Below, piece by piece: positions 1-34,483 of a stretch of DNA of 64,000 bases. Location: positions 20,985 to 84,984 of the forward strand of contig JANJTV010000065.1 in assembly GCA_024710905.1 (NCBI GenBank), in the 5' to 3' direction. The notes under the pieces are model-generated. The model saw nothing but the letters and a program-made list of their open reading frames with translations. It had not been told where the DNA came from and made no database searches. Source of the stretch: Anaerolineales bacterium (lineage in GTDB: Bacteria; Chloroflexota; Anaerolineae; Anaerolineales; Villigracilaceae). Each line of letters starts with the position of its first letter. Within the stretch, counting starts at the first letter, position 1. Made by a program: the position numbers and the translations under genes.

Positions 1-792
1 GTGGGGTACGTCACCAGCCAGGGGAAAGTCCGTCTCGCATTCGATGTCGGCGATGACGCCACCTTCTTCAACAACCCGGACCTGCCCGAAACCCGCAGTG
101 CGTTGACCCTGCCGCTCAAATACGGCAATGAAGTCATCGGCGCGCTGGATGTACAAAGCACAGTGGAAAGCGCATTCACCGAAGAAGACATCGCCGTGCT
201 AACCACCCTCTCCGACCAGGTCAGCATTGCCATACACAACGCCCAACTCTTCGATGAAGCCCAGCGCGCCATCCAGCAAAGTGAGGCCACCTTCCGTCAG
301 TACATCCGCAATGAATGGTCGCGCTACATCACGACCAGCAACCAGGTAGGCTACCAGTTCAGCAACACCGAAGGCGCCGCGCCAATCGTGGAGCCCCGGG
401 TAACCCCGGAAAACCGCCAGGCCCTCCAGACGGGGGAAGAGCAGGTCCATGCAGATGACATGCAAACGCGCCTCGCTATCCCGCTCAAACTTCGCGGAGA
501 AGTGATTGGGATATTAAACGTCCAGGCGCCGGGCTCCCGAGAGCTGGATGATGACGAAAAGGACATTATCCGCGCTGTCAGCGACCGCGTTACCCTGGCC
601 ATCGAAAATGCCCGCCTCGTTGAAGACAGCCAACGCCGCGCTTCAAAAGAACAACTGATCGGTGAAATTACGTCCCGCATCGGCGCATCCATCAATATGC
701 GCAATGTGCTTCAAACCGCCGTGGAAGAGTTGGGGCGCGCACTACCCGGCTCTGAGGTGGTCATTCAATTCAGCCAGGACAAAAAGGAATAG
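1..792 (+). CDS. GAF domain-containing protein, C-terminal fragment (5' end outside window)
   Basis: The frame is open from the window edge. Two GAF-like blocks are present (LPETRSALTLPLKYGNEVIGALDVQS and LAIPLKLRGEVIGILNVQAPG), each followed by AIxNAxLF. The layout and C-terminus match the next gene. Confidence 0.75.
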   Translation: MGYVTSQGKVRLAFDVGDDATFFNNPDLPETRSALTLPLKYGNEVIGALDVQSTVESAFTEEDIAVLTTLSDQVSIAIHNAQLFDEAQRAIQQSEATFRQYIRNEWSRYITTSNQVGYQFSNTEGAAPIVEPRVTPENRQALQTGEEQVHADDMQTRLAIPLKLRGEVIGILNVQAPGSRELDDDEKDIIRAVSDRVTLAIENARLVEDSQRRASKEQLIGEITSRIGASINMRNVLQTAVEELGRALPGSEVVIQFSQDKKE

Positions 793-794
793 TT

Positions 795-2561
795 ATGCTT
801 AAGCGGATTCTGGAATTCCTTGTCCCAACACTCACTGACTTAACCGAGGCGCGTTCAAACCAAAACCTGGTACGGACGATTACCCTGATCTTAATCCTTG
901 CCGCTGGTGGAGCACTGGTGCTGGAAGGTTTTATATTCGGTAACCCAACCACCGTTAGCATTCTCACCCCGCTGCTTGTTATTCTGTTCATCATCCTGTT
1001 GCTGAATCGTCCGGCTACCAACCAGTTGGCCCGATTGCTGGTGCCTGTCGTGGTGCTTTCTGGGAGCACATCCCTGATTGCGGCCGGAGGCGGCATCCAT
1101 GACAGCATTGCCATGATTATTACTCTGCCGGTCATTGTCGCTGGGCTGGTCATGGGAACGAACGGTCAATTATTTATTGGTATCTTATCCATCATCGCCT
1201 TAGTTGGTGTGGCAAGTGCTGAAATGACCGGGATGATCACCAACAATTTCAGCGAGTCAACAGACCTAACTGACATTCCCTTGATCATTATTGCCCTTGG
1301 CACCATTGTTGCAGCCCAGCGCCTTCTTACCCGACGGTTGACAGACAACGCGGAACGAGCCAGGAAAAGCGAACAAGAGCAATTAAATACCAATGCCGAA
1401 CTTCGCAACCTGCAAATCTCGCTGGAAGACCGTATCGCCCAACGTACCGCAGAACTGGCCAAACAATCCAGCGAAGTTGAACAACAATCACAAGAATTGT
1501 TCCAGGCCAATATGCGTATTGAACGGCGCGCCGTTCAGTTACAAGCCATTTCAGTGGTTTCCGGTGCCATCCGAAAAGTTCGTAACCTGAAAGAGACGCT
1601 GCCCCAGATTGCCGACGTAATCAGCAAACAATTTGGTTACTACCACGTCGGTATTTTCCTGGTTGATGAAGCCCGCCAGTACGCCATCCTGAGCGCAAGC
1701 AACAGCCAGGGTGGCGCCAGGATGTTGAAACGTGGACACAGGCTCCGGGTGGGCCAGGTTGGCATCGTGGGTGATGTCGCCTTTACAGGCAACCCCCGTA
1801 TCGCCCTGGATACCGGAGAAGATGCTGCTTTTTTCAATAACCCAGACCTGCCAGAAACACGTTCAGAGATGGCTGTGCCGCTGATTATTGAGAACCAGAT
1901 TATCGGCGTGCTCGACATCCAAAGCACGGAACAGAATGCTTTCGGCGAAGAAGACGTGGAGGTCATCCTGACCCTGGCAGAACAGGTAAGCATTGCCATT
2001 GAAAACGCGCGACTGTTCGATGCAACGCAAAAATCGCTGGCCGAGGCCGAAACCATCTATCGACAATACCTGCGTAGCGAGTGGCAGGGTTTTACCCGAA
2101 AACAGTCGCTCAAAGGCTATCAATATTCCATCACCGGCGCAACCCCGCTGGGTGAAGACGTTGACCTGCCTGCCTTCCGCGAGGTAATGGAAGAAGGCAA
2201 GGTATACACAGATAATGGCGAAAAATCAAATACTGCCGCCATTGCCGTTCCAGTAAAACTGCGTGACGAGACCATTGGCATCCTTAACATCCGCACACCT
2301 GGCGAACGTCGCTGGTCTCAGGATGATATTGACCTGATTAGCGCTGTGGCAGAACGTGTTGCCATATCGGTTGAAAATGCCCGCCTGTTTGAAGAGACCA
2401 CCAGCCGTGCAGAACGTGAACGAGCCGTTTCTGAAATCACAGCAAAAATCCGCAGTACCAACGACCCGAATCTGATGTTGCAAATTGCCCTGGATGAGTT
2501 GAAACAAGTGTTGAACGTAAAAGATGCGCGCATCATCACCAGGGAACAAAAGAAGGCCTAA
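795..2561 (+). CDS. membrane-anchored tandem-GAF protein with no recognisable output domain
   Basis: ATG lies 2 nt after the upstream stop. The N-terminal ~190 aa is strongly hydrophobic (about 5-6 TM), followed by a coiled-coil-like Q/E-rich stretch. Two GAF blocks follow (PDLPETRSEMAVPLIIENQIIGVLDIQS and IAVPVKLRDETIGILNIRTPG). It is a paralog of the upstream fragment. Confidence 0.8.
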   Translation: MLKRILEFLVPTLTDLTEARSNQNLVRTITLILILAAGGALVLEGFIFGNPTTVSILTPLLVILFIILLLNRPATNQLARLLVPVVVLSGSTSLIAAGGGIHDSIAMIITLPVIVAGLVMGTNGQLFIGILSIIALVGVASAEMTGMITNNFSESTDLTDIPLIIIALGTIVAAQRLLTRRLTDNAERARKSEQEQLNTNAELRNLQISLEDRIAQRTAELAKQSSEVEQQSQELFQANMRIERRAVQLQAISVVSGAIRKVRNLKETLPQIADVISKQFGYYHVGIFLVDEARQYAILSASNSQGGARMLKRGHRLRVGQVGIVGDVAFTGNPRIALDTGEDAAFFNNPDLPETRSEMAVPLIIENQIIGVLDIQSTEQNAFGEEDVEVILTLAEQVSIAIENARLFDATQKSLAEAETIYRQYLRSEWQGFTRKQSLKGYQYSITGATPLGEDVDLPAFREVMEEGKVYTDNGEKSNTAAIAVPVKLRDETIGILNIRTPGERRWSQDDIDLISAVAERVAISVENARLFEETTSRAERERAVSEITAKIRSTNDPNLMLQIALDELKQVLNVKDARIITREQKKA

Positions 2562-2570
2562 GAGAAGGAA

Positions 2571-3356
2571 ATGACCATGACATCTCCAATTATTACCGCG
2601 ATCTTCTCCCAGAAGGGTGGTGTTGCCAAAACAACCACTTCCTATTCATTGGGCGCGGCGTTGGCAGAAATGGGCAAAAAAGTACTGCTGATCGATCTTG
2701 ACCCGCAGGGCAACCTGACCATTGCCAACGGAATCGAGCTGGCAGAGGTGCGTGCTGGCAGTGCCGAGGTCCTGTTAGATGGTGTCAACATGACCGGCGC
2801 AATCATGGATACAAATACCGAAAACCTGAAGATCGTACCCGCCAGCAGCAGGCTGGGCCAGGTTGAGTCTTTCCTGCCAGTACGAAATAATTACCTGTAC
2901 ACGATGAAAACCGCCCTGGCCCAGGCTGACCTCGAAGACTATGACTTTGTTGTCATGGATTGTCCCCCCGCAGCAGGCGCCATCACCATGAACGCGCTGA
3001 CCGCCACCAAGCTGCTAATCATCCCCACCCAGGCGGAATACTTCTCGGCGTATGCCCTGCGTGACATGATGACACTGGTGAGGCGCATCCGCAAGGAAAC
3101 CAACCCGGACCTCGCCTACCGTATCCTGATCACCATGCTGGACCAGCGGAACCGCGCCCACCGTTCCATCCGCGAACAGTTATTGCAGACCTTCGGCAGT
3201 GGCCTGTTTAATGCCGTGATTGAGATTGACACCCGACTGCGCGAAAGCCCAATCCTGGGGTTGCCCATTACCCAGTACAAACCCAACAGCCGCGGCTCTT
3301 TGCAATATCGTGTGCTGGCACAGGAGCTGATTGATCATGTCAAACAAGAAGCTTGA
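2571..3356 (+). CDS. ParA/Soj-family P-loop ATPase
   Basis: Deviant Walker A motif SQKGGVAKTTTSYSLGAALA, then LLIDLDPQGNLT and VVMDCPP. Size is 261 aa. A GAGAAGGAA RBS lies upstream. Confidence 0.9.
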   Translation: MTMTSPIITAIFSQKGGVAKTTTSYSLGAALAEMGKKVLLIDLDPQGNLTIANGIELAEVRAGSAEVLLDGVNMTGAIMDTNTENLKIVPASSRLGQVESFLPVRNNYLYTMKTALAQADLEDYDFVVMDCPPAAGAITMNALTATKLLIIPTQAEYFSAYALRDMMTLVRRIRKETNPDLAYRILITMLDQRNRAHRSIREQLLQTFGSGLFNAVIEIDTRLRESPILGLPITQYKPNSRGSLQYRVLAQELIDHVKQEA

Positions 3357-6300
3357 CAAGCGGCTTGGCAGCCTTTTTGAAGACATTAAGGTTGAAGGCA
3401 ACGAAACTGAGCCTGCGCCAAAGCCGCCGTCACCCCCCAAGGCCAGTCCGCCGCCTGCAAAAAAACAGCCTGTTGCGCCTCGCAGCCCAAAAGCAGAAAA
3501 GCCCACACCGGAACCCAAGGCTTCCCGTCCACGTAAAGCGGCTGCCCGGCCCGAGCCAGCATCCGAGCTGGCTGTGTATGATGAGTCCTCGACCACGCTG
3601 ACCATCCCAATCACTACAGGCGAAACATGGAGCGTCCTCGAACTGGTGGATGACAGTCGAGACGGGTGGCTGGATGAAGAAAAAGCGCTTGCCCGACAGG
3701 TGGTAGACCAGCTCACCCTGGCTCTACAAAACGCCAACCTGTTCCAACAAACCGAACGACAGAACCGCAGTCTGGCCGTGTTGAATGAAATGGGCCGCGA
3801 ACTCACCACGCAGACCACCTTGCAGGAGATCAGCGAAACCATATTTAAATATACCGGCCAGTTGATGGATGTCTCATCCTTCTTTATCGCTATCTTTAAC
3901 GAAGAGGCCGATGAGCTCAGCTTCCCTGTCGTTACCGTGGACAGTGAACGCATTTCGTTTAACCCACGCAAGATTGGGCGCGGCCTAACCGACTATATCA
4001 TCCGCAATCGCGTTCCCTTGCTGATGAACGAAAACATCCCAGATCGCATGAAAGAGCTGGGGCTGGAATTTATCGCCATCGGCAACAACAAGGCGCCGCT
4101 TTCCTGGCTGGGTGTGCCCCTGCAGGTCGGCGAGAAGATTCTCGGTGCTGTGGTTGTCCAGAGCGTGGAACATGCCTACCTGTACGATAAAGAAGAACTG
4201 GAATTGCTCTCCAGTATTGCTTACCAGGCCGCCATCGCCCTGGAAAGTGCCAACCTGTTCCAGCAGACACAGCAGCAAAACCTTGAACTCGGCATCCTGA
4301 ACGAGATGGCCAACGAACTCTCCACGCTCTCAAATATTGAGGGAGTGGCAAATATTGTTTACAAGTACACCGGCAAATTGATGAATGTGACTGATTTTTT
4401 CCTTGCCGTGTACGACCAGCATACCAACAAAATATCCTTCCCATTGGTTTACTTCGACAACGACCCAACATCCATCGAAAGTACGGATATTGGCGAGGGT
4501 TTGAGCGCCTGGGTGATTAAGAATCGCAAGACCCTGCTGCTGACGGACAATGTTGAGGAGCGGGCTGCCGAGATGGGCATCCGTACCCTGACCATTGGCG
4601 ATGACGAACCCGTACTGAGCTGGCTGGGTGTGCCAATGATTCTGGGCCAGGAAGTACTGGGCCTGATTTCTGTCCAAAGCGTAGTGGCTCCACGCCTGTA
4701 CGGTCAACGCCAGGCAGACCTGTTACAGGCCATTGCCGGCCAGGCAGCCATTGCCATCCAGAATTCCCGACTGTACGAGCAGGAACAATATCGCCGCCGT
4801 GTGGCTGACACGCTGAGTGAAATGGCGCGCATTGCCGGCGCATCACTGGATTTTGAGAACGTTACCCAGAACCTGCTCAACCAATTGCCCAAACTACTCA
4901 CCTTCCATACCGCCTCGATCCAATTTGTGGATGAACAAGGGAATCGCACCCAGGCAGGCGGAATGAGCCTGCATGAAGAACGTAAAAGTGACCTGGAGCA
5001 CCCCGAAGGGCACTTCCTGCGGCCCGTCGATGAAGACCCTCTGATACGCGAAATTGTTCGTAAGAAGAAACCGGTCATCATCCCGGATACACATAACGAT
5101 GACCGATGGGAAGTGCTTCCTGAAACCCGCCACATCCGCTCGTGGCTGGGAGCCCCGCTAATGGTCGGGAATACGGTGATCGGGATCCTGATCCTGGATG
5201 ATGAGGCACCGTTCACCTATACCGAAGAGTCAATCCCCCTGGCAGAGTCTTTCTGCGCCCAGGCGGCTGTAGCCATCCAGAATGCCCGCCTGTTTGAGGA
5301 AACCCAAACGGCAGCAGCCAACTTCAGGAACTTGATTGAGAACGCTCCGGAAGCCATCGTGGTCGTTAATGTAGAAAACGGGCTTTTTGAAGACCCGAAT
5401 GAAAATGCCGCCAGGTTGTATGGGTTGCCGGTTACAGAACTGGTCAAGGTTGGCCCTGCCCAGATGAGCCCGCCGCTCCAGCCGGATGGCCGGCCATCCG
5501 CAGAAGCTGCCATGGAAAAAATCCAGCAGGCAATTCGAGGCGAGACGCCAGTATTTGAGTGGGACCATATCAATGGGCAGGGTGAGCTAATTCCCTGTGA
5601 AGTTCACCTGTCGCAAATGCCCGGTGACCGGCCGCGCGTCCGCGCAACCGTGATCGATATTACAGAACGCAAAAAGGCCCAGGAAGCCCTACGAAAAAGT
5701 GAAGAGGCCTTGCGCCGCCAGAACGAATACCTGGCTACCGCCACCGAGGTCAGCCGCCTGGTTTCCTCCACTCTGGACCTGCCCACCCTGTTCAGCCGCG
5801 CTGTGAACCTGATCCAGACCAGTTTTGCTTACTACCATGTTGCCATCTTTACCCTTGACGAAGCCGGATACACTGCCATTGTGCGCGAGGCCACTGGTGA
5901 GGCCGGGGAAAAAATGCGCGAAAGCCGTCACTCGCTGGTGGTCGGTTCGAAATCAGTAATCGGGAATGTTACCTCCAGCGGCCAGACGGTGGTGGTAAAC
6001 AACACTGCGCTCGACCCAATGCACAAGACCAACCCATTACTGCCGGAAACCCGTGCCGAAGCGGCCATCCCACTCCGAATTGGTCAGCGGATCATCGGCG
6101 CACTGGATATCCAGTCGCGGGATGTCGGCGCTTTCCAGGCCAATGACATCACCGTACTGGAAACACTGGCAGACCAGATCTCCGTTGCAATCAACAACGC
6201 TGAACTCTATGAGATCTCCCAACAGGCCGTTGAACAGATGCGCGAAACAGACCGCATCAAGACACAATTCCTGGCCAACATGTCTCATGAACTGCGCACG

Positions 6301-7728
6301 CCGCTCAATTCGATCATTGGTTTCTCGCGAGTCATCCTGAAGGGCATCGACGGCCCGATTAACGAACAACAACAACAAGACCTGACCGCAATCTACAATT
6401 CCGGGCAGCACCTGCTCGGCCTGATCAACGACATCCTCGACCTGTCCAAGATTGAGGCCGGTAAGATGGATCTCTCCTCCGATGAGCTGAACGTGGCCGA
6501 CACCATCAACAGCGTCATGTCCACCGCTATCGGCCTGGTGAAAGATAAGCCCATCCGCCTGGAAAAGCATATCGCAGAAGATGTGGTGCACATCCGCGCA
6601 GATGCAATGCGCATTCGGCAGGTTTTGCTCAACCTGATGTCCAACGCGGCCAAATTTACCGAGGAAGGTACCATCACTGTATCAGCGGAAAACAGTACTA
6701 CACCTGATGGCCTGCGTGAGGTGCTGATTAGCGTGACAGACACCGGCCCGGGTATTTCGCCGGAAGACCAGAGCAAACTTTTCCAGGCCTTCTCGCAAGT
6801 GGACTCTTCGCCCACCCGTGCCTCCGGTGGTACAGGCCTGGGTCTTTCCATTTGCCGCCGCCTGGTGGAATTGCACGGCGGGCGGATTGGCATCCATTCG
6901 GTGGTGGGCAAGGGCAGCACCTTCTACTTCACCATCCCGGCTTTTGAGCAGCCCAACCTGCCCTCGGTTAACCCCAATGGTAAAGTGATTGCCTGTATCG
7001 ATGACGATACCCAGGTAACCGGGCTATACCAGCGTTACCTCCAACCACAGGGATACGAAGTGGTTGCCCTGACGAACCCCGCCACGGCCAAAGAAACAGT
7101 GAAACGCATCAGGCCGTATGCCGTCACCCTCGACATTATGATGCCGGGAATTGATGGTTGGAGCATCCTCGAACAACTTAAGAATGACCCGGAAACCCGC
7201 GACATCCCGGTCATTATCTGCTCCATCGTTGAAGAAGAAGAAAAAGGCTTCAGCCTCGGTGCATCGGATTACCTCGTTAAACCGATTATGGAAGAAGACA
7301 TCACCCGTTCATTGCAGCGCCTGAATGGGGATGGAAGCATCCGCCATGTGCTGGTCATTGACGACTCTCCTGACGACCTGAAATTGATGGAGAAGATCCT
7401 GAAAACCGCCGGGCGCTACGAAGTGCAGCTGGCCCAGGGCGGAAACCAGGGCTGGGAGAAACTAAGCGACACCCCGCATCCACAGGCAGTAATCCTGGAC
7501 CTGTTCATGCCAGACCTGAGTGGCTTCGAGATCCTTGAGCGCATGCGCGTCACGCCGGAAATGCGCGACATCCCGGTCATTGTCGTCAGCGGCGCAGAAC
7601 TGACTGTCGATCAGAAAAAACACCTCGAGAACCTGGGCAAACGCCTGCTGCAAAAGGCCATGCTCGGCGAAAAAGAGCTTTTCAGTGAACTGGAAAAAAC
7701 CTTGAAACGCATCGAACAGCCGGAATAA
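3337..7728 (+). CDS. hybrid sensor histidine kinase: basic/Pro-rich tail, multiple GAF, PAS, GAF, HisKA, HATPase, two REC domains
   Basis: H-box FLANMSHELRTPLNSIIGF. HATPase motifs DTGPGISPEDQSKLFQAF and GGTGLGLSICRRLVELHGG. Repeated GAF signatures LSWLGVP...G..LG...VQS. PAS-like NLIENAPEAIVVVN. Two receivers (IDDDTQV...LDIMMPGIDG and VIDDSPDD...LDLFMPDLSG). The start could be ATG 3337 or TTG 3331; either overlaps the ParA stop at 3354-3356. Confidence 0.9.
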   Translation: MSNKKLDKRLGSLFEDIKVEGNETEPAPKPPSPPKASPPPAKKQPVAPRSPKAEKPTPEPKASRPRKAAARPEPASELAVYDESSTTLTIPITTGETWSVLELVDDSRDGWLDEEKALARQVVDQLTLALQNANLFQQTERQNRSLAVLNEMGRELTTQTTLQEISETIFKYTGQLMDVSSFFIAIFNEEADELSFPVVTVDSERISFNPRKIGRGLTDYIIRNRVPLLMNENIPDRMKELGLEFIAIGNNKAPLSWLGVPLQVGEKILGAVVVQSVEHAYLYDKEELELLSSIAYQAAIALESANLFQQTQQQNLELGILNEMANELSTLSNIEGVANIVYKYTGKLMNVTDFFLAVYDQHTNKISFPLVYFDNDPTSIESTDIGEGLSAWVIKNRKTLLLTDNVEERAAEMGIRTLTIGDDEPVLSWLGVPMILGQEVLGLISVQSVVAPRLYGQRQADLLQAIAGQAAIAIQNSRLYEQEQYRRRVADTLSEMARIAGASLDFENVTQNLLNQLPKLLTFHTASIQFVDEQGNRTQAGGMSLHEERKSDLEHPEGHFLRPVDEDPLIREIVRKKKPVIIPDTHNDDRWEVLPETRHIRSWLGAPLMVGNTVIGILILDDEAPFTYTEESIPLAESFCAQAAVAIQNARLFEETQTAAANFRNLIENAPEAIVVVNVENGLFEDPNENAARLYGLPVTELVKVGPAQMSPPLQPDGRPSAEAAMEKIQQAIRGETPVFEWDHINGQGELIPCEVHLSQMPGDRPRVRATVIDITERKKAQEALRKSEEALRRQNEYLATATEVSRLVSSTLDLPTLFSRAVNLIQTSFAYYHVAIFTLDEAGYTAIVREATGEAGEKMRESRHSLVVGSKSVIGNVTSSGQTVVVNNTALDPMHKTNPLLPETRAEAAIPLRIGQRIIGALDIQSRDVGAFQANDITVLETLADQISVAINNAELYEISQQAVEQMRETDRIKTQFLANMSHELRTPLNSIIGFSRVILKGIDGPINEQQQQDLTAIYNSGQHLLGLINDILDLSKIEAGKMDLSSDELNVADTINSVMSTAIGLVKDKPIRLEKHIAEDVVHIRADAMRIRQVLLNLMSNAAKFTEEGTITVSAENSTTPDGLREVLISVTDTGPGISPEDQSKLFQAFSQVDSSPTRASGGTGLGLSICRRLVELHGGRIGIHSVVGKGSTFYFTIPAFEQPNLPSVNPNGKVIACIDDDTQVTGLYQRYLQPQGYEVVALTNPATAKETVKRIRPYAVTLDIMMPGIDGWSILEQLKNDPETRDIPVIICSIVEEEEKGFSLGASDYLVKPIMEEDITRSLQRLNGDGSIRHVLVIDDSPDDLKLMEKILKTAGRYEVQLAQGGNQGWEKLSDTPHPQAVILDLFMPDLSGFEILERMRVTPEMRDIPVIVVSGAELTVDQKKHLENLGKRLLQKAMLGEKELFSELEKTLKRIEQPE

Positions 7729-7748
7729 TCCACTTTAGGAATATCGCC

Positions 7749-9425
7749 ATGAGCAGCTTTAGTATTGTTTGCCTCGATTGCAACCATAGTACCCGTTACC
7801 ACCCGGCCGAGATCAACTGCCCGCAATGCGGCAGCCAGTGGCGCGAGGTGACTTACCCGTATAAAGAAATTGCCCCCAAACTTAAAGCCGAACTAGCCCA
7901 GCGCCCGTTTGACCTGTGGCGATTTCGCGAATTGCTGCCTGTCCACAACCCGCTGCCAACCTTGCGCATGGGTGAAGGTGGCACGCCGCTCATCCGCGCT
8001 GTTAACCTGGGCGAAATGCTCGGCTGCGAAAACATCTTCATCAAAGATGAGCGGCAGGGGCCAACCTCTTCTTTCAAAGACCGCCAGGCTGCTGTGACCA
8101 TCGCGGCACTCAAAGAAGCGGGCATCACCGAAATGGTGGCTGCCTCGACCGGCAATGTCGCCATCGCCTATTCTGCGTTTGCCGCCCGCGCTGGCATCAA
8201 GCTTTGGGCTTTTGTCACCAGCCTCGTCCCGGCAGTAAAAATGCGTGAAATCGCCCTGTACGGCAGCCAGGTCGTAAAAGTGACCGGTTCCTACGACCAG
8301 GTAAAGCAAATTGCCGCCGAATTTGCCGAAAAACGCGGCCTGTACCACGATCGCGGCGCACGAACAATTACATCGGTCGAGGGGATGAAAACAATCGCCT
8401 TTGAAACGGCCGAGCAACTGACCGACGAATTTGGTCCACTGACAGGGGCGGATGGTACACCTCGCTGGCGGACTCCCGATTGGTACATCCAGGCCATCAG
8501 CGGCGGCCTCGGCCCGGTAGGCATTGCCAAAGGGTTCCGTGAACTCCGCGAGATGGGCTTTGCCGAAGGCCACCCCAAACTGGTTGGCATCCAGGCTGAG
8601 GGCTGCGCCCCGATGGTGCATGCCTGGAAGCAAAACCTTGAAAAAGCCGAACCAGTCATGTCCCCCAAAACCCATATCGAAACCCTGGCCACAGGTACGC
8701 CGGGGCGCGCCTACGAACTCCTGCGCAAGGAAATGCTCGAGTTTGGCGGGCTATTCGAGAGCGTGACAGACGAGGAATCCTTCCGGGCCATGCACGTGCT
8801 CGCGAAAATGGAGGGCATCTCGGCTGAGCCCGCCTCCGGCGCGGCCTTTGCGGGACTCTTCAAGCTGGTGCGAGCGGGCATCATCAAGCCAACCGATGTG
8901 GTCGTCATCAACTGCACCGGCCATACCATGCCTGCCGAGCCATTGGTGCTGGGCAGCGGCTGGGCACGCAATGTCGTCCTGCCTGCTGAACAACCTGAAG
9001 CGCTACCCCAGGAAGACGGCCTGCTGGCTGCCCTGAGCCGGGTCGCGCCAGATCGCTTCCCACGCGTGGCGATTGCCGACGACACGCCGGACGCCCGGCG
9101 CCTGATTCGGCGCATCCTGCAATCTCAGGGTGACTACACGATATTCGAAGCGACCAACGGCAAGGAAGCCATTGAACTGGTCAAGCGTGAACACCCCGAC
9201 CTGCTCATTTTAGACCTGATGATGCCCGAGGTGGACGGGTTTTCGGTGCTGGACGCGCTGAAATCTGACCCGGAAACAGCACAGATTCCCGTGATTGTTT
9301 CAACAGCCAAAGAACTGACCAAGGATGAAAAGGTGCGCCTGCAAGGGCAGATTCAGTCCCTGATGCAAAAAGGTGATTTCCTAAGTGACGATTTCCTTGA
9401 AGAAGTAAAATCCATTATCCGCTAG
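7749..9425 (+). CDS. threonine synthase-like fold-type II PLP enzyme fused to a C-terminal response-regulator receiver domain
   Basis: N-terminal Zn-ribbon CLDCNH...CPQCGSQW. PLP-lysine motif GPTSSFKDRQAAV and ASTGNVAIAYSAFAA. The C-terminal ~120 aa is RVAIADDTPDARRLI...DLLILDLMMPEVDGFSVL...PVIVSTAK, a CheY-like REC domain. Confidence 0.8.
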   Translation: MSSFSIVCLDCNHSTRYHPAEINCPQCGSQWREVTYPYKEIAPKLKAELAQRPFDLWRFRELLPVHNPLPTLRMGEGGTPLIRAVNLGEMLGCENIFIKDERQGPTSSFKDRQAAVTIAALKEAGITEMVAASTGNVAIAYSAFAARAGIKLWAFVTSLVPAVKMREIALYGSQVVKVTGSYDQVKQIAAEFAEKRGLYHDRGARTITSVEGMKTIAFETAEQLTDEFGPLTGADGTPRWRTPDWYIQAISGGLGPVGIAKGFRELREMGFAEGHPKLVGIQAEGCAPMVHAWKQNLEKAEPVMSPKTHIETLATGTPGRAYELLRKEMLEFGGLFESVTDEESFRAMHVLAKMEGISAEPASGAAFAGLFKLVRAGIIKPTDVVVINCTGHTMPAEPLVLGSGWARNVVLPAEQPEALPQEDGLLAALSRVAPDRFPRVAIADDTPDARRLIRRILQSQGDYTIFEATNGKEAIELVKREHPDLLILDLMMPEVDGFSVLDALKSDPETAQIPVIVSTAKELTKDEKVRLQGQIQSLMQKGDFLSDDFLEEVKSIIR

Positions 9426-9432
9426 GAAACCT

Positions 9433-10383
9433 TTGTTCAAAACACCCCAAGCACAAACCGCTGGCATCCTGGCGGCGCTTGCCTCGGCAGTTTTCCTGGG
9501 GCTTGCGCCTGTTTTTGGGCGCTGGGCCATCCTGCTTGGGTTCAGCCCGCTTTCGGTGGTGGCCCTGCGTACCGGCCTGGCCATGCTGATGGTCTTCCTG
9601 ATCATCCTGCTATTCCAGCGCACCTTCCTGTACATCTTTCCAGTCGGCCTGATCGGCTGCCTTCTGGCAGGTGGGATTAATGGCCTCGGGTCACTATTGT
9701 ATTACATGGCGCTGGGCAAACTGCCGGCCAGCATCGGGCAACTGCTCTATTCGCTCTACCCGTTGTTTGTAGCATTATTTTCTATTTTGGATAAACAACC
9801 GATCACCCGCCTGACCATGTTCCGTGTTGGGCTGGCCAGCGTGGCCGTCTTCCTGCTTACCGGACTGGAAGAATTTAATCTTGAGCCCGCCGCAGTATTG
9901 ATGATGATTGCCGCGGCCGCCCTGTATGCCTTGCACATCCCGATCAACCAGCGCGTGCTGTATGAAATCCCCGCCCCGACTGTAACGCTGTACACCCTGC
10001 TGGCCATGACTGCCGTAACCCTGCCCGCTTACCTGCTTTTTGACCGCCAGTTACCCCCGGAAAATGCGAACTGGTGGCCGCTGGTCGGGCTGACGTTGGT
10101 AACGTTCATCTCACGACTGACGCTCTTCCTGGGGATTAAAAACATTGGCGGCGTCCAGACCGCCATCCTCGGGTTGGGGGAACTATTTATCACCCTGCTG
10201 CTCAGTTACTTGCTGCTGGGCGAAACCCTGACCTGGTTGCAGCTGCTTGGCGTGGGTATTTTGGGCTTCAGCCTGATGCTGATCATGTTGGACAAACAAG
10301 ACCCGCAGCGGCGCCGCCCGAAAGGCGGCTGGCTGGCCTGGCTACACCCGCCGGAAATCAACCCCTGGAGCTTGCAGGATTAG
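9433..10383 (+). CDS. EamA/DMT-family transporter
   Basis: 316 aa with about 10 hydrophobic segments forming two similar halves. The TTG start is uncertain. Confidence 0.7.
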   Translation: MFKTPQAQTAGILAALASAVFLGLAPVFGRWAILLGFSPLSVVALRTGLAMLMVFLIILLFQRTFLYIFPVGLIGCLLAGGINGLGSLLYYMALGKLPASIGQLLYSLYPLFVALFSILDKQPITRLTMFRVGLASVAVFLLTGLEEFNLEPAAVLMMIAAAALYALHIPINQRVLYEIPAPTVTLYTLLAMTAVTLPAYLLFDRQLPPENANWWPLVGLTLVTFISRLTLFLGIKNIGGVQTAILGLGELFITLLLSYLLLGETLTWLQLLGVGILGFSLMLIMLDKQDPQRRRPKGGWLAWLHPPEINPWSLQD

Positions 10384-10402
10384 GAAATCAATGGAAATAA
10401 TT

Positions 10403-10440
10403 AGCAGGTTGGCCACGCATGACCAACCTGCTCACTTTTT
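10403..10440. terminator. intrinsic terminator between convergent genes
   Basis: Stem agcaggttgg / ccaacctgct followed by cacttttt. Confidence 0.65.
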
Positions 10441-10457
10441 ACCCGCTTATCTATAGC

Positions 10458-11171
10458 TCACTCTTCAAACACATACCCCGTGCCACGCACACTCTGGATG
10501 CGGTCGTACAGGGTCTCAAAGGCAGTCAGCTTATGGCGCAGGCGCGACACCAACGGGCGTAGAATTTCCTGCGCTTCGCGTTGGGATACATCATAGCCTT
10601 GCACCAGCAAAACAAGCTCACGGTGTGAAAACACCTTGCCCGGGTTCTCCAAAAAGACTTTCAGTAAATGCCCTTCCGCCGGGGTCAACATTTCTTTTTT
10701 ATCACCTTGCATAACAATCCGACGCATAATATCGACCTGCACACCATCCGGGGCGGTATACATCTGGACTTCTTCCGTTTCCCCCTCTTTGTTGCGGCGG
10801 CGCAACTCGCGGCGTTCCAGTCCCTTCCGGATGCTCTCCAGGATTTGCGCGGGAGAGGCCGGTTTGAGCAGGTAATCATGGACGCGCTGGCGCAAGGCCT
10901 CCACCGCCGACTCCATCGAGCCGAAGGCCGTCAATAGGATAATCTCCGTATCCGGGGAAACCTGGCTGACCACCTGGGCAACATCCAACCCGTTCATGCC
11001 CGGCATTTTCAGGTCGAGCACCATCAGGTCAACCGAATAATTGCGCGCATGCTCCACAGCCGCCTCCCCGTTGGCAGCAGCGGTCACCTGGTACCCCTCC
11101 AGGCGCAGGATATCTGTAAGCGATTGGCGGGCCACAGGCTCATCATCAACGACCAAAATATTAGCTTTCAT
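10458..11171 (-). CDS. OmpR-type response regulator (REC plus winged-helix)
   Basis: MKANILVVDDEP...LMVLDLKMPGMNG. The C-terminus LVSRLRHKL...IQSVRGTGYVFE is typical of the Trans_reg_C domain. Confidence 0.85.
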   Translation of the reverse strand: MKANILVVDDEPVARQSLTDILRLEGYQVTAAANGEAAVEHARNYSVDLMVLDLKMPGMNGLDVAQVVSQVSPDTEIILLTAFGSMESAVEALRQRVHDYLLKPASPAQILESIRKGLERRELRRRNKEGETEEVQMYTAPDGVQVDIMRRIVMQGDKKEMLTPAEGHLLKVFLENPGKVFSHRELVLLVQGYDVSQREAQEILRPLVSRLRHKLTAFETLYDRIQSVRGTGYVFEE

Positions 11172-11177
11172 GTCCTC

Positions 11178-12743
11178 TCACTCCTTTATTGGCAATGACA
11201 CCCGGAAACAGGCCCCCGCGCCCTGGCTCCGCAATAAATCCAACCGCCCACCGTGGGCAGTTATGATATCGTAACTGACCGACAACCCCAAACCTGTGCC
11301 GCCTTCTTTCGAGCTGATGAAGGGCTCAAAAATACTTTCGCGCATCTCGTCAGGTACACCCGGCCCGCTGTCGGTGAATAGGATTTCGATCACTTTCTTT
11401 TTCTGCGTAATACTAATGGAAAGATCACCACCCTCAGGCATGGCATCAAAGGCGTTCAAAATAATGTTGATGAAAACCTGCTCCACCTGGTTACTGATCG
11501 CCATCACCGCCGGCAGGCTGGCTGGCCACGAAGTGGTCACACGAATGTCACGTTCCCGCAGCTGTTGGCCCATCAAATCCAGGACGTGCTCCACCAGATC
11601 GAGCACCTGCACCGGGCGGAACTCTGCGCTGGTGCGGTAGAAGTCAAGCATACGCTGCACAGTGGACATCAACCGATCGAGTTCCTGCTTGGTCAGATCA
11701 ATATATTTCTCGCGCATCTCATCCGAGATATCGCCGCGCGTGGCCAGGTGCAGACAGTTACGCACAGATTGCAGTGGGTTATTAATTTCATGTGCAATGG
11801 AGGCTGTCAGGCGGCCGGCGGTAGCAAGTTTTTCGGCCTGTACCAGAGCCGTCTGTGAATCTTCCAATTTTTTGATATAGCGCCGCAACTCGTCATACAG
11901 GTGGGCATTCTCATAAGCCACCGCGCACTGGCGCGCCAGCACCAGGAAAGTCTCAAAATCAGCCATCCTGAAAGGCTGCTGGTCTGCATCTCTGGCAACA
12001 TAAATCACCGGGTGGGTATTTACCAGCCCGGTTGGCACAACCATCATCGAAGCGACACCGGCCAGATCCAATGCGGAAGCGGAACCCGACTCCAGCTGGG
12101 ATTGTGGCCCGGACCATACCGGGGTGCCCCGCTCGTTCGCCAGCCGGATCGGATTTTCACCGTCCAATGAAACCAGTTTCCCACGCCCGTTGACCAGCTC
12201 TATCTCACCCTTTCGTCGCACGCGATAAATTGCCACATTCGGGCAGTTCATCTGGCGCGAAAGGACGGTTAGGATCAGGTCAATTAAAGAGGTGGGGTCT
12301 GTTTCCGAAATCAGGCTTTCAGTCAGTGCAAAAAGCGGCTGGAGGGCCTGCAGGCGGGCAACATCCTGCTTTTTCTGGTACTCGTCAATGGCGCGTTCAA
12401 CGGCATTAAGCAATGACTCGCGCTCAAAGGGTTTCAAGATAAGCCCGTCAACACCCTTGTGCAGTACCTCGATGGCGGTTTCAACGGTACCAAAACCAGT
12501 CATGACCAGCACAGCCATATCCGAATTGCTGGATTTGACCGAGTCGATCACGTCCAGGCCGCTCATGCCGGGCATGCGAATATCGACCAGCAACAGGTCA
12601 ACCTGGGCGTTCTTGAGGTACTCCAGCGCCTTGGGGGGGTCGTTAAAGGCTGCCACATCGTAACCAGCCGCAGTCAACAACCGCTCACACAGCAGCACGA
12701 TGCCGGGTTCATCGTCGATGACCAGCACATTAGGCCGCGACAT
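11178..12743 (-). CDS. hybrid REC-GAF-histidine kinase
   Basis: REC domain (NVLVIDDEP...LLLVDIRMPGMSG), a GAF-like middle region, H-box ASIAHEINNPLQSV, and HATPase DSGPGVP...GGTGLGLSVSYDII. I chose the ATG at 12743 because it gives a 14-nt overlap with the upstream stop; the tracked ORF extends to 12803. Confidence 0.85.
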   Translation of the reverse strand: MSRPNVLVIDDEPGIVLLCERLLTAAGYDVAAFNDPPKALEYLKNAQVDLLLVDIRMPGMSGLDVIDSVKSSNSDMAVLVMTGFGTVETAIEVLHKGVDGLILKPFERESLLNAVERAIDEYQKKQDVARLQALQPLFALTESLISETDPTSLIDLILTVLSRQMNCPNVAIYRVRRKGEIELVNGRGKLVSLDGENPIRLANERGTPVWSGPQSQLESGSASALDLAGVASMMVVPTGLVNTHPVIYVARDADQQPFRMADFETFLVLARQCAVAYENAHLYDELRRYIKKLEDSQTALVQAEKLATAGRLTASIAHEINNPLQSVRNCLHLATRGDISDEMREKYIDLTKQELDRLMSTVQRMLDFYRTSAEFRPVQVLDLVEHVLDLMGQQLRERDIRVTTSWPASLPAVMAISNQVEQVFINIILNAFDAMPEGGDLSISITQKKKVIEILFTDSGPGVPDEMRESIFEPFISSKEGGTGLGLSVSYDIITAHGGRLDLLRSQGAGACFRVSLPIKE

Positions 12744-13935
12744 GTTCATGCTCCAATGGCAACCAGACGGTAAACGTGGCGCCCTGATCCAGCTGGGATT
12801 CAACTTCTATCATCCCACCGTGGTCAGTGACAATGCCATATGTAACTGAAAGACCCAGGCCGGTGCCGCCCTGCGTGCTGCGGGTGGTAAAAAATGGCTC
12901 GAAGATTTTTGGCAGGTTTTCAGGGGGGATTCCCACGCCGGTGTCAGTCACCTGCACCACCACCCAGTTCCGTTCGTAGCGCGCCCGGCCAAATGTGCGC
13001 ACGGTAAGCTGCCCACCGCGTGGCATGGCATACAGGCCGTTTTGCACCAGGTTTAAGATGACCTGCTTAATCTGGTTTCGGTCCATCACGACCCAGGGCA
13101 GGTCGTTTTCAAGCTCAACAGCAGGCTGCACCTGGTTGGTGTGCATCAGGTGCTTGGTCAGGGCGAGAACATCCTCCACCAGCTCATTCAGACTGGCGCG
13201 GTTTCGGTCTGATTCACTCTGGCGTGAAAAATCGAGCAGGCGGCGCACGACACTGCGAGCACGTTTGGCTTCACGAAGGACAAGATCCAGATCGGCATAT
13301 AAGGGGGAATCCACCGGCAGGCTGTCGAGCGCCAGTTCGGTAAAACCAACCACCGTGGTCAGCGGGTTGTTCAGTTCGTGAGCCACCCCGGCAGACATCT
13401 CACCCACTGCTGCCAGTTTGGCAGCTTGCACCAGGCGCATTTCAGCATCCCGCTGGGCAGAGATGCGCGCCTGCAATTCTTGCTGGGTTTCCTGCAATTC
13501 GGTCACAACTTCCTGCAATCGACGGGTACGTTCTTCACTGTCGCCAGTCAGGTCTTCAATGGTATGCACCATGAACTTCCAGAACTGCGCTACGCCAGGA
13601 GCCAGTTTGCCATTGCTCCCAACCAGCAGAACCGCTTGCAGGGAATAAAGCGGGAAGACGGTTAATTCGCTACACGAAACACCTGGTTCGCTGATCTTCC
13701 GCGTCCGCTGCTTGTCCTTCTCAATGGAAGTCACCAACCAGTTAAAAAAATCCTTGTCTTTTAGAAGCTGTACAAGGCGGTTCATTCCGGGTTTTTCCAG
13801 CCCAGCGCTGGCGCCAATATCCAGCCCAACATCCTGGCGCAAAAGGAATGCGGCCCAGGCGACTCCGGTCTGTTCCACCGCTTCCTTGAGCATTCTCGGG
13901 CTGACAAGGCGATATGGCATATTCAAATTATACAT
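12730..13935 (-). CDS. sensor histidine kinase
   Basis: H-box SAGVAHELNNPLTTVVGF and HATPase DTGVGIPPENLPKIFEPFFTT..GGTGLGLSVTYGIV. Confidence 0.8.
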   Translation of the reverse strand: MYNLNMPYRLVSPRMLKEAVEQTGVAWAAFLLRQDVGLDIGASAGLEKPGMNRLVQLLKDKDFFNWLVTSIEKDKQRTRKISEPGVSCSELTVFPLYSLQAVLLVGSNGKLAPGVAQFWKFMVHTIEDLTGDSEERTRRLQEVVTELQETQQELQARISAQRDAEMRLVQAAKLAAVGEMSAGVAHELNNPLTTVVGFTELALDSLPVDSPLYADLDLVLREAKRARSVVRRLLDFSRQSESDRNRASLNELVEDVLALTKHLMHTNQVQPAVELENDLPWVVMDRNQIKQVILNLVQNGLYAMPRGGQLTVRTFGRARYERNWVVVQVTDTGVGIPPENLPKIFEPFFTTRSTQGGTGLGLSVTYGIVTDHGGMIEVESQLDQGATFTVWLPLEHEHVAA

Positions 13936-32214: not shown

Positions 32215-33003
32215 ATGGATTATTTTGTGCCTGTTGCAGCAGCCATAGGCTTGCTGGGTGGGGTCGTGATTAACCACCTGGCCGATGTCCTGCCGCACGA
32301 CAAGCCATTGCGCGCGCCGGTCTGCCAGAACAAGGATTGCCTGGATGTTTACACCTGGCAGCAATTTTTGCTGATGAAACCCTGCCCACATTGCGCCACC
32401 CGCCGCAGCGCCCGGAGCTGGCTCACCCCGCTCGTGCTGGCGGTTTTCGCCGTTTATCTCTGGCTAAAAGCGGATTCCGCACTTGTCTTTGGCATCGACA
32501 TGGTCCTGAGCCTCTACCTGGTCCTGGTCGCGTTAATCGACCTCGAGCACCGCCTGGTCTTGCGCGTGCTCAGCATCCCGGGCCTGTTCCTGTGCGTCGC
32601 AGCCGGAATCTGGGCGCACGGCTGGCAGGCCAGCCTGCTGGGCGGATTGGGCGGTTTTGGCATCATGATGGCATTTTACCTGCTGGGCGTACTGTTCACC
32701 AAAATCCGCGCCCGGCGTCTGGGCAGCGAGAACGACGATGGCGAGGAAGCCCTGGGCTCAGGGGATGTTACCCTGGCGACGTTGCTTGGCCTGCTGCTGG
32801 GTTGGCCGCTGATCTGGTTCAACCTGCTGATGGGCATCCTGTTCGCGGGCGTGGTTAGCTTGCTGATTATTGGCATACTTTTACTACAACGCAAATACCT
32901 CCAGCAGGCCATGATGGTCTTTATCCCGTTTGGGCCATTTTTCATTGCCAGCGCATTCCTGTTGCTGCACTTCCCCGGCTGGATCAAGGCTGTCTTGTCT
33001 TGA
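32215..33003 (+). CDS. A24-family prepilin (type IV / Flp) peptidase
   Basis: Polytopic membrane protein with a Cys-rich loop CQNKDC...CPHCATRRS. Two Asp motifs are present: LIDLEHRLV and ALGSGDVTLATLLG. Confidence 0.8.
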   Translation: MDYFVPVAAAIGLLGGVVINHLADVLPHDKPLRAPVCQNKDCLDVYTWQQFLLMKPCPHCATRRSARSWLTPLVLAVFAVYLWLKADSALVFGIDMVLSLYLVLVALIDLEHRLVLRVLSIPGLFLCVAAGIWAHGWQASLLGGLGGFGIMMAFYLLGVLFTKIRARRLGSENDDGEEALGSGDVTLATLLGLLLGWPLIWFNLLMGILFAGVVSLLIIGILLLQRKYLQQAMMVFIPFGPFFIASAFLLLHFPGWIKAVLS

Positions 33004-33082
33004 TGTAGGAATGTTGTGGGATTAATATTTTAAGAAAAGCATTCTATACTTATAATCGTTTCATTATTTTCGGGAGTGACTT

Positions 33083-34483
33083 ATGTTTTTGGAAAACAAG
33101 GATAAAAAGCAGGGAGGCCAATCGGCGGTTGAGTTCGCACTCATCCTGCCTGTTTTGCTGCTGCTCATCTATGGCCTGCTCGAAATGGGACGCCTGGTCT
33201 TTATTTTCAGCATCGTCACCACCGCCAGCCGCGAAGGCGCGCGCTATGGCGCCGCCACGGGCCTGAATGTGGCCGGCGGCATCCCTCGCTACCAGGACTG
33301 CGCGGGCATCATGGCCGCCATCGAGAACGTGGACTTTATCAACGTGATCGACCCGGCAGATGTAACCATTTCGTACGACACCGGACCGGATGCCGCCAGT
33401 GACTTCTCCGCCTGCCCGCCGACCAACATCAATACCGGGGACCGCATCAAAATTACAATTTCTTCCCCGTTTGCCCCGATTGTGCCGCTGGTCCCGCTGG
33501 CGGCCTTTGATATTGAATCGACCACCAATCGCACGCTGCTCTCCACCATCGTGATTCCCGAAGGATCTGCCGTCGCGCCAGCCACCGCCCTGCCCACGAC
33601 CACCCCGACGGCCTCCATCACCCCGACAGCAACTGAAACCTCGCTGTATTCACCGACCCCCAGCGACACGCCGACCATCACAACGACACCAACCATCACC
33701 GCCACGCCCACCACGACCTCCACCCCCACCCCCACCGGGACCGCCACCGCCACCGCCACCCCGACCGGTACGCCGTTCTCCTGCAGCATCACCCACAATG
33801 GCAGCCTGGCAAACGGCAGTTCGGCCACCTGGACGATGTACAACAGCCACCCATTCAACATCGACGCATCCTACTTTTCCTTTGACTGGAATGGCAACGA
33901 TGTATTAACCAACCTGACACTGAATGGAAGTCAAATCTACGACCGCAATTCAGCGGCGGTACTGATTACCAAGAACACCCTCTATAACGGCCCCTGGACC
34001 CTCAGCCCCGGTGCAAATACCCTGACCATCACCTGGAACGGAAGCGTCAGCAGCCCTGAAGCGGAGGCCTTCTTTAATTACCTCTCCTGCACCTTTACCC
34101 TGTCCTCAGGCAACTCCGGGCAGGCTCGTACACCCACTCCAGGGGCAGCAACTGCGACCAACACACCATCCGGGCCAACAGCCACCTTCACACCGACGCA
34201 CACTCCTGGTGGCGCGACGAATACCCCCACGGCCACCGCCTGTACTATTGGCCTGAGCGGTTCGCGCACCGGCAGCAATGTCAACCTGAACTGGACCAGC
34301 GCCGCCGGCGCAACCAGTTACCAGGTCTGGCGCTCGATTGATGCAGGCGCCTTCAACCTGCTCAAGACCGTGACCGGTACAAACACCACAGACACAATCC
34401 CGAGCAATACCACCCACCAGTATTACATTGTTCCGGTCGGTGGGACGTGTACCCAGAGCAATACGATCGTGATCATTCGTTAA
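33083..34483 (+). CDS. TadE-like pseudopilin with a ~330-aa C-terminal extension
   Basis: The N-terminus KKQGGQSAVEFALILPVLLLLIYGLLEMGRLVF is a TadE-type class-III signal. Two Pro/Thr-rich linkers flank beta-rich modules. The last module (NLNWTSAAGATSYQVWRS) is Fn3-like. Confidence 0.7.
   Translation: MFLENKDKKQGGQSAVEFALILPVLLLLIYGLLEMGRLVFIFSIVTTASREGARYGAATGLNVAGGIPRYQDCAGIMAAIENVDFINVIDPADVTISYDTGPDAASDFSACPPTNINTGDRIKITISSPFAPIVPLVPLAAFDIESTTNRTLLSTIVIPEGSAVAPATALPTTTPTASITPTATETSLYSPTPSDTPTITTTPTITATPTTTSTPTPTGTATATATPTGTPFSCSITHNGSLANGSSATWTMYNSHPFNIDASYFSFDWNGNDVLTNLTLNGSQIYDRNSAAVLITKNTLYNGPWTLSPGANTLTITWNGSVSSPEAEAFFNYLSCTFTLSSGNSGQARTPTPGAATATNTPSGPTATFTPTHTPGGATNTPTATACTIGLSGSRTGSNVNLNWTSAAGATSYQVWRSIDAGAFNLLKTVTGTNTTDTIPSNTTHQYYIVPVGGTCTQSNTIVIIR

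Follow-up and report, generated by a model that had tools for sequence, protein, structure and literature searches.

We examined a 64,000-nucleotide (nt) stretch, called the window below, from an Anaerolineales bacterium of the phylum Chloroflexota (contig JANJTV010000065.1, positions 20,985 to 84,984), in which the end of a ParA/Soj-type ATPase gene overlaps the start of a gene for a very large hybrid sensor histidine kinase. This pair, its recurrence in related genomes and the short peptide with which the kinase begins are the subject of this report. The features concerned, with those of the surrounding cluster, are collected in Table 1.

Table 1. Features of the window at and around the ParA-kinase junction.
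Feature	Position	Strand	Basis or remark
End of another multi-transmembrane GAF paralogue (cut open reading frame)	1..792	+	tandem paralogue
Multi-transmembrane, coiled-coil protein with two GAF domains and no output domain	795..2561	+	Pfam GAF; hydrophobic segments at residues 24-179
Orphan ParA/Soj-type ATPase	2571..3356	+	Pfam, structure matches, invariant motifs, own clade
Shine-Dalgarno-like AGGAG	3322..3326	+	read from sequence
Overlap of ParA 3' end and kinase start, 20 nt	3337..3356	+	orthologous loci overlap by 8-44 nt
Soluble hybrid sensor histidine kinase: tag, tether, GAF array and one PAS, HisKA, HATPase_c, two REC	3337..7728	+	Pfam
Conserved N-terminal kinase peptide, proposed ParA-docking/activating tag	3337..3390	+	alignment, codon variation, helix in AlphaFold2 model
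Non-conserved Pro/Lys/Ala-rich disordered tether, residues about 19-86	3391..3594	+	entropy, composition, AlphaFold2 confidence
Threonine-synthase-like pyridoxal-phosphate (PLP) enzyme with N-terminal Cys4 zinc-ribbon-like motif and C-terminal receiver	7749..9425	+	PALP and Response_reg; thrC-like at 254 bits, below cut-off
EamA/DMT-family transporter	9433..10383	+	follows the PLP-REC gene in 51 loci
OmpR-type response regulator	10458..11171	-	conserved convergent
REC-HisKA-HATPase kinase	11178..12803	-	conserved convergent
Histidine kinase	12730..13935	-	conserved convergent

The ATPase, the kinase and their junction

The upstream gene encodes 261 amino acids (aa), and its product is, judged by motifs and fold similarity, an ATPase of the ParA/MinD (deviant Walker A) family. 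The deviant Walker A motif KGGVAKTT, with its signature lysine, occupies residues 15-22 and is invariant across 28 aligned orthologues, as are D42, D44 and D130 (in DLDPQ and the Walker B motif DCPP). Pfam AAA_31 matches at 1.6e-46, with further matches to CbiA, ParA and MipZ; the NCBIfam models for ParA partition proteins, BcsQ and MinD also match, all below their cut-offs. The nearest solved structures are 8RAY, 4PFS, Thermus Soj (1WCV/2BEK) and Helicobacter Soj (6IUB), with E values of 1e-34 to 1e-39 (about 1e-38 for 1WCV). Numerous homologues are found at 56-91% identity, and the named ones all come from Anaerolineae (Chloroflexota).

Two features bear on the matrix along which such an ATPase might work. 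In the segment TRLRESP, [R/K]222 aligns with the Arg of nvRLSE in 8RAY, and R224 is invariant in the 28 orthologues; the Arg of the RLSE motif (R189 in Soj) has a role in DNA binding. The C-terminus (...ELIDHVKQEA) is polar, the orthologues end in Q/K/D/S-rich tails, and we found neither a C-terminal membrane helix nor any hydrophobic segment in the protein. With the basic residue kept and a membrane-targeting helix lacking, ParA appears to fit the nucleoid-matrix type, not the membrane-matrix type of MinD.

The second gene, read from its ATG at 3337, encodes 1463 aa, and by its predicted domain make-up the product is a hybrid sensor histidine kinase. Pfam recognizes four GAF stretches, a PAS domain, HisKA (residues 975-1042, with the H-box MSHELRTPLN), HATPase_c (1089-1202) and two REC domains, the first at 1218-1326; NCBIfam gives partial, BarA/TorS-like matches. 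An AlphaFold2 (AF2) model of residues 1-315 adds an extra GAF-like fold at about 86-300. Transmembrane anchoring of the kinase was considered and rejected: there are just two marginal hydrophobic windows (residues 426-444 and 602-620), and both lie within the GAF array.

The TGA stop codon of ParA occupies 3354-3356, which confirms the coordinates of the 20-nt overlap between the KGGVAKTT gene and that of the 1463-aa kinase as reported in the first-pass annotation of this DNA. A Shine-Dalgarno-like AGGAG lies 10 nt 5' of the kinase ATG, within the ParA coding region. The overlap suggests that translation of the two genes may be coupled. The junction is transcribed, on low-depth metatranscriptome evidence: two regions, 3265..3488 (which takes in the end of ParA and the start of the kinase) and 3391..3618, are covered by sediment contigs that match the window exactly. 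The antisense open reading frame (ORF) at 3180..3971 (-), like the other overlapping ORFs, is presumed to be a spurious shadow of the coding strand.

Recurrence of the pair and the N-terminal peptide

One genome per GTDB species was scanned for ParA orthologues, yielding 70 loci from Anaerolineae/Chloroflexota and nine outgroup loci in which an ordinary Soj gene adjoins that of ParB. At 66 of the 70 loci the ParA stop lies within a gene that begins with the same peptide as the window kinase. The complete partner proteins, all but one, combine multiple GAF domains with HisKA and HATPase_c and usually two REC domains; the exception, at locus L002, has 1082 aa with three GAF and no kinase domains. 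Given this shared architecture, the partners other than that of L002 are orthologous to the window kinase, and an arrangement shared by 66 of 70 orthologous loci is far beyond chance.

The window kinase starts with MSNKKLDKRLGSLFEDIK (residues 1-18) and runs on into a Pro/Lys/Ala-rich stretch. Partner-gene starts at Anaerolineae ParA loci share MS..KKIRNRLDKLFTDIK, and the family consensus is M-S-(S/N)-(N)-K-(K/R)-I-x-(K/N)-R-L-(D/N/E)-x-(L/I)-F-x-(D/E)-I. In 63 aligned N-termini residues 4-17 are conserved: K4 is present in 57, R9 in 60 (the other three have Lys) and F14 in all 63, and I/L6, L10, L/I13, D/E16 and I/L17 are further conserved positions. Conservation in orthologues, on which the first-pass proposal of a ParA-activating peptide depended, is thus borne out. 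The residues are spelled with varied synonymous codons (five for Arg, five for Leu, three for Ile, two for Phe), which points to constraint on the protein and not on the DNA or the ParA reading frame. K4, K/R5 and R9 are kept, and the consensus carries a net charge of +2 to +3 over residues 5-18.

In the AF2 model, made from a shallow alignment of nine sequences, residues 3-18 form a helix at a predicted local distance difference test (pLDDT) score of 52-60, residues 17-82 are without structure (pLDDT <50), and a confident GAF-type fold starts at 86. The helix is amphipathic, its hydrophobic moment of 0.56-0.67 standing around the 90-96th percentile of shuffled sequences; the N-terminal peptides of ParB have similar values (0.52-0.59).

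Past the peptide, residues 22-86 show a column entropy above 3 bits and many gaps, and conservation comes back from about residue 88. In the window kinase these residues are 28% Pro and 91% disorder-promoting; the linkers of the orthologues measure 30-77 residues (median 59) and are at the median 78% disorder-promoting. Composition, alignment and pLDDT all back the disordered Lys/Pro-rich stretch that had been described after the peptide. We rejected the idea that the linker is a conserved basic DNA-binding tail, its net charge being positive in 38 orthologues and negative in 22. With an adjoining gene, a basic extreme N-terminus and a flexible region before the body of the protein, the kinase appears to have the anatomy of an ATPase-activating partner.

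A permissive regular expression, applied in six frames to about 1.3 Mb of the loci, placed the peptide at no other N-terminus. It is present in 62/62 partner ORFs. The same loci contain 327 further ORFs of 250 aa or more that encode GAF or kinase domains, and 0/327 have it; the first-pass annotation had proposed just this comparison, expecting kinases next to ParA to keep the peptide and other kinases to lack it. In the reverse direction, a degenerate DNA pattern that encodes the peptide was run against all GTDB genomes, and 120 matches were sampled. Seventeen of them lie 3-4 codons after a Met, and all 17 stand directly behind a ParA orthologue; 16 open ORFs of at least 586 aa, and the other (L149) ends at a tile edge. 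These 17 belong to Anaerolineales or Chloroflexota, nine of them being species that the ParA search had missed. The remaining 103, from unrelated taxa and without a ParA, fall inside ORFs or in short ones; they are chance matches from the loose pattern and served as negative controls. In all eight metagenome homologues that were retrieved, seven of which span 81% or more of the query, the peptide stands at the start. Searching a protein database with the N-terminal part of the kinase gave 34 matches, mostly fragments and too few for a deep alignment.

In several long-read MFD assemblies (L020, L026, L029, L052, L070) the kinase ORF is broken soon after the peptide or elsewhere, for example into a 105-aa piece and then a 908-aa piece in L052. 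Such breaks in long-read metagenome-assembled genomes (MAGs) are most likely assembly frameshift errors and not true truncations.

The ParA gene of these pairs stands apart from the chromosomal partition system. A ParB profile built from the nine outgroup ParBs, which scores 390-449 bits in the outgroup loci, found no ParB, even at E values as high as 10, either in the 64-kb window or at the 70 ParA loci (flanks up to 10 kb on each side). With at most one mismatch allowed, parS (TGTTNCACGTGNAACA) has no site in the Anaerolineae ParA loci or the window, versus 17 in the nine outgroup soj-spo0J loci. When ParA, the kinase and the genes between 795 and 34480 were scanned for domains, a single DNA-binding domain emerged, that of the OmpR-type regulator on the opposite strand, so the first reading of the sequence, which had seen neither a ParB nor a helix-turn-helix partner gene, holds on both counts.

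Canonical Soj (KGGVGKTT) is encoded directly upstream of ParB in six genomes labelled Anaerolineae, Anaerolineales, Anaerolineaceae or Brevefilum, and in several other Chloroflexota; the canonical Anaerolineae ParB begins RRGLGKGLGALIP. This Soj is about 50% identical to the Soj of other phyla and 35-38% (median 36%) identical to the kinase-linked ParAs, which form a monophyletic group of 70, with a median mutual identity of 63%, separate from canonical Soj. The kinase-linked ParA has neither an adjacent ParB, nor a nearby parS, nor a place in the canonical Soj clade. Since ParB and parS are missing nearby, the clade is separate and canonical Soj-ParB operons occur elsewhere in the class, ParA is an extra, orphan paralogue, as had been supposed. 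That it might be the sole chromosomal Soj of a ParB-less lineage was rejected, because canonical Soj-ParB operons are present in genomes labelled Anaerolineae.

The ordinary soj-spo0J operons were seen at L336, L340-L343 and L375 (match at about 4001-4860). The parS scan matched an Anaerolineae MAG (L239, with a perfect intergenic site at 4946..4961) and a Limnocylindria locus with Soj-ParB. The 4-kb flanks of the Anaerolineae ParB loci hold no perfect parS, and one-mismatch near-matches occur in L336, L338 and L339.

Proposed function and alternatives

Sequence comparison suggests that the kinase is what the orphan ParA of Anaerolineae binds and positions. We propose that the two genes form a ParA/MinD-type positioning module whose tagged kinase would be both activator and cargo, and give this a probability of somewhat under 60%. 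ParA is expected to dimerise with ATP and to bind the nucleoid non-specifically, like other ParA-type ATPases. The tethered N-terminal helix of the probably translationally coupled kinase (17 residues, with K4, R9, L10, L13, F14, D/E16 and I17) would be captured by nucleoid-bound ParA-ATP dimers and, by analogy with ParB, MinE, PomX, McdB and TlpT, may stimulate ATP hydrolysis. The resulting ParA gradient would spread kinase assemblies along the nucleoid, so that they would be spaced and inherited in long multicellular filaments. The membrane multi-GAF proteins of the upstream genes may work together with these assemblies, and the kinase would signal to the receiver-fused threonine-synthase-like enzyme, the EamA exporter and the OmpR-type regulator.

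The ParA/MinD ATPases are the main known means by which bacteria place large cargos, and many ParAs are orphans whose partners are unknown; the known cargos are chromosomes, plasmids, the divisome, flagella, chemoreceptor arrays, carboxysomes and conjugation machinery (PMC10241942, PMC11407121). The combination of an ATPase with a partner bearing an N-terminal tag is already known, the nearest analogue being PpfA-TlpT of Rhodobacter sphaeroides. There too an orphan ParA-like ATPase serves a cytoplasmic signalling cargo, in that case a chemoreceptor cluster which it positions, and TlpT, a component of the cargo itself, is the proposed activator of PpfA through a positively charged N-terminal extension (PMC7993993). 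The present partner differs in being a multi-GAF hybrid histidine kinase and not a chemoreceptor, and no che, methyl-accepting chemotaxis protein (MCP) or CheW domains occur in the neighbours scanned from 795 to 34480; the ParA clade is also separate, is restricted to Anaerolineae/Chloroflexota and is known here from sequence alone. PomX of Myxococcus xanthus has a conserved basic N-terminal peptide of 22 residues that suffices to activate its ATPase, then an Ala/Pro-rich, probably unstructured region and a scaffold domain (PMC7993993). The kinase shows the same three-part anatomy, but its body is a sensor kinase instead of a coiled-coil scaffold, and the PomZ-PomX system, which positions the division site, has no sequence similarity to it; nor is there a link to FtsZ here.

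In McdB a disordered, charged N-terminus contacts McdA and the remainder binds the carboxysome cargo (PMC10241942). McdA-McdB resembles the present pair in joining a ParA-type ATPase to an adjoining partner, and the McdA structures 6NON/6NOO are distant relatives of ParA (E about 1e-15); the partner here, however, is the enzyme itself and not a small adaptor, and there are no microcompartment genes. ParC of Vibrio is a ParA-like ATPase that places the polar chemotaxis array, which contains a kinase (PMC10241942, PMC11407121). A ParA-like ATPase dedicated to a kinase-containing signalling assembly is what we propose here also, but ParC-ParP relies on a separate adaptor (ParP), a polar landmark and a che operon, none of which apply. 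The Soj-Spo0J-parS system shares with the pair a Soj-like ATPase, a partner gene overlapping the ParA stop in the manner of parB, and a basic N-terminal peptide with an L-[DE]-x-L-[FIL] core. Against this, the kinase is without a ParB domain or helix-turn-helix, there is no parS, the peptide lacks the GxGxG signature, and the ParA belongs to another clade.

Pairing and peptide evidence would serve equally well for a regulatory switch, in which ParA gates the kinase in an ATP-dependent manner or the kinase controls the ParA cycle, so that nucleoid, ATP or cell-cycle state is coupled to signalling without any patterning. ParA proteins with regulatory roles are known, for example Soj, which regulates DnaA, and the kinase is a single large soluble protein with no evident mesoscale body such as a carboxysome. 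We nevertheless consider a switch unlikely: ParA keeps a basic residue where Soj has the Arg of its RLSE motif, and a short tag on a long flexible tether is the typical anatomy of a cargo adaptor (PMC7993993). It is also conceivable that the helix is not a ligand of ParA, which would then just be co-transcribed, and that the helix serves for membrane binding, as an oligomerisation or degradation signal, or for docking to the upstream GAF proteins. Its amphipathic moment, the conserved synteny of the upstream membrane GAF genes and the four ParA orthologues without a kinase would suit such a role. The conserved acidic residues D11 and D/E16 on the polar face of the helix do not, nor does the confinement of the peptide to the gene overlapping the ParA stop, with its absence from the 327 paralogues and from the upstream GAF proteins; in the genome-wide scan, moreover, no Chloroflexota match is N-terminal in a long ORF without ParA upstream. 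On balance we judge this alternative very unlikely.

Scarcely credible is the view that ParA is a chromosome-segregation Soj working with a distant ParB-parS and that it lies beside the kinase only by incidental synteny. In fold and motifs it is indeed Soj-like, and Anaerolineae possess ParB and at least one perfect parS; yet a canonical Soj exists upstream of that ParB and is only distantly related to the kinase-linked clade (about 36% identity), none of the 70 loci has ParB or parS near it, and the start-stop overlap with a tagged kinase is kept across the class. An extension of the positioning proposal would make the ParA cargo a large receptor-kinase array of 2-5 membrane multi-GAF proteins and the giant kinase, a non-chemotaxis analogue of chemoreceptor arrays, in which the receiver-controlled enzyme and the EamA protein make and export an amino-acid-derived signal along the filament. 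This we think distinctly unlikely.

Several observations weigh against positioning of the kinase by ParA. The ParA orthologues at four of the 70 loci (L023, L025, L027, L042) have no adjoining kinase, so ParA can persist without this neighbour. The PLP-REC and EamA genes are also missing at L023, L027 and L042; L027 lacks the GAF cluster and has a tyrosine-integrase-like gene 3.4 kb upstream of ParA (L027 5557..6624, 9953..10768), the upstream sequence of L023 and L042 is too short to judge the GAF cluster, and L025 has a PLP-REC gene upstream of ParA. At these loci either the kinase has been relocated in the genome or ParA has a further role. The canonical Soj and the kinase-linked ParA, moreover, came from different sampled MAGs; the metatranscriptome signal is of low depth and could include DNA; and an N-terminal amphipathic helix could serve another role. 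Finally, a hidden Markov model (HMM) of the ParB N-terminal peptide, whose motif is GLG[RK]GL[DEGS]ALI/F, scores the kinase peptides at no more than 3.7 bits (E at least 42), which puts them 6th, 26th and 33rd among 9044 ORFs.

The reverse search with a small HMM of the kinase peptide placed one ParB at rank 3 with 2.9 bits, which is not significant, and with neither direction significant we do not claim homology of the kinase peptide to that of ParB. By eye, with one gap, MSSKKRLGKGLEALIPD of ParB can be set against MSSKRIQKR-LDQLFTDI of the kinase; both have the start, a preceding basic residue and an L-[DE]-x-L-[FIL]-x-[DE] core. The first-pass annotation had seen in the window peptide a resemblance to the ParB motif LGRGL/LGKGINALF. 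That specific resemblance is not demonstrable. The 'LG' is an outlier of the window in a family that has D, N or E at the Gly position, and what is shared is the general type, an N-terminal group of basic residues and then an amphipathic L-[DE]-x-L-F helix. The likeness thus seems to be one of type only.

In the literature searched we found no earlier account that pairs a ParA-type ATPase with a histidine kinase or describes the Anaerolineae cluster, with the proviso that one paper mentioning ParB and Chloroflexi was unreadable at the relevant place; recent surveys of ParA/MinD cargos do not name a histidine kinase among them. New here are the ParA clade, the class of partner and the large, little-studied lineage. 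A class-wide orphan ParA clade gains a concrete candidate partner in a self-tagged two-component sensor kinase. If positioning is confirmed, ordinary signalling kinases would join the actively positioned cargos, a first handle would be had on the subcellular organisation of the abundant but little-studied filamentous Anaerolineae, and the compact natural pair of tag and ATPase could be of use in synthetic positioning systems.

The surrounding gene cluster

Between two and five tandem multi-transmembrane GAF paralogues lie upstream of ParA, always on the same strand, a position kept in 66 loci. Their products combine about 5-6 transmembrane segments at the N-terminus with a long coiled coil and a pair of GAF domains (seen in the upstream 2-10 kb in L002-L070). 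Whether these receptor-like proteins, which have no output domain of their own, may signal through the tagged kinase is a question that the arrangement raises. Directly 3' of the kinase is the PLP-REC gene, found there in 58 loci at 860-1000 bits; its product is a likely phosphotransfer target of the kinase. The placing of a receiver-controlled, amino-acid-type enzyme beside an exporter hints that the output of the pathway could be a small exported metabolite.

Words sampled from 2400..10500 of the window are present at 81-99% in sediment and wetland metagenomes, and presence is patchy in three metatranscriptomes from sediment and rhizosphere, in which RNA contigs represent the cluster from the upstream GAF genes through the PLP-REC gene. 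From its presence in metatranscriptomes the organism is transcriptionally active in situ.

The OmpR-type regulator gene and the two minus-strand kinase genes are kept beside the cluster in most genomes; the two kinase genes share about 70 nt, the exact figure varying with the choice of start codon. Annotation of the window reached 34480, and from 14012 to that point the genes are ordinary chromosomal housekeeping. The prepilin peptidase (Peptidase_A24) and the TadE-like protein of 466 aa encoded at 32215..34483 (+) suggest a Tad/Flp-type pilus locus further along the window.

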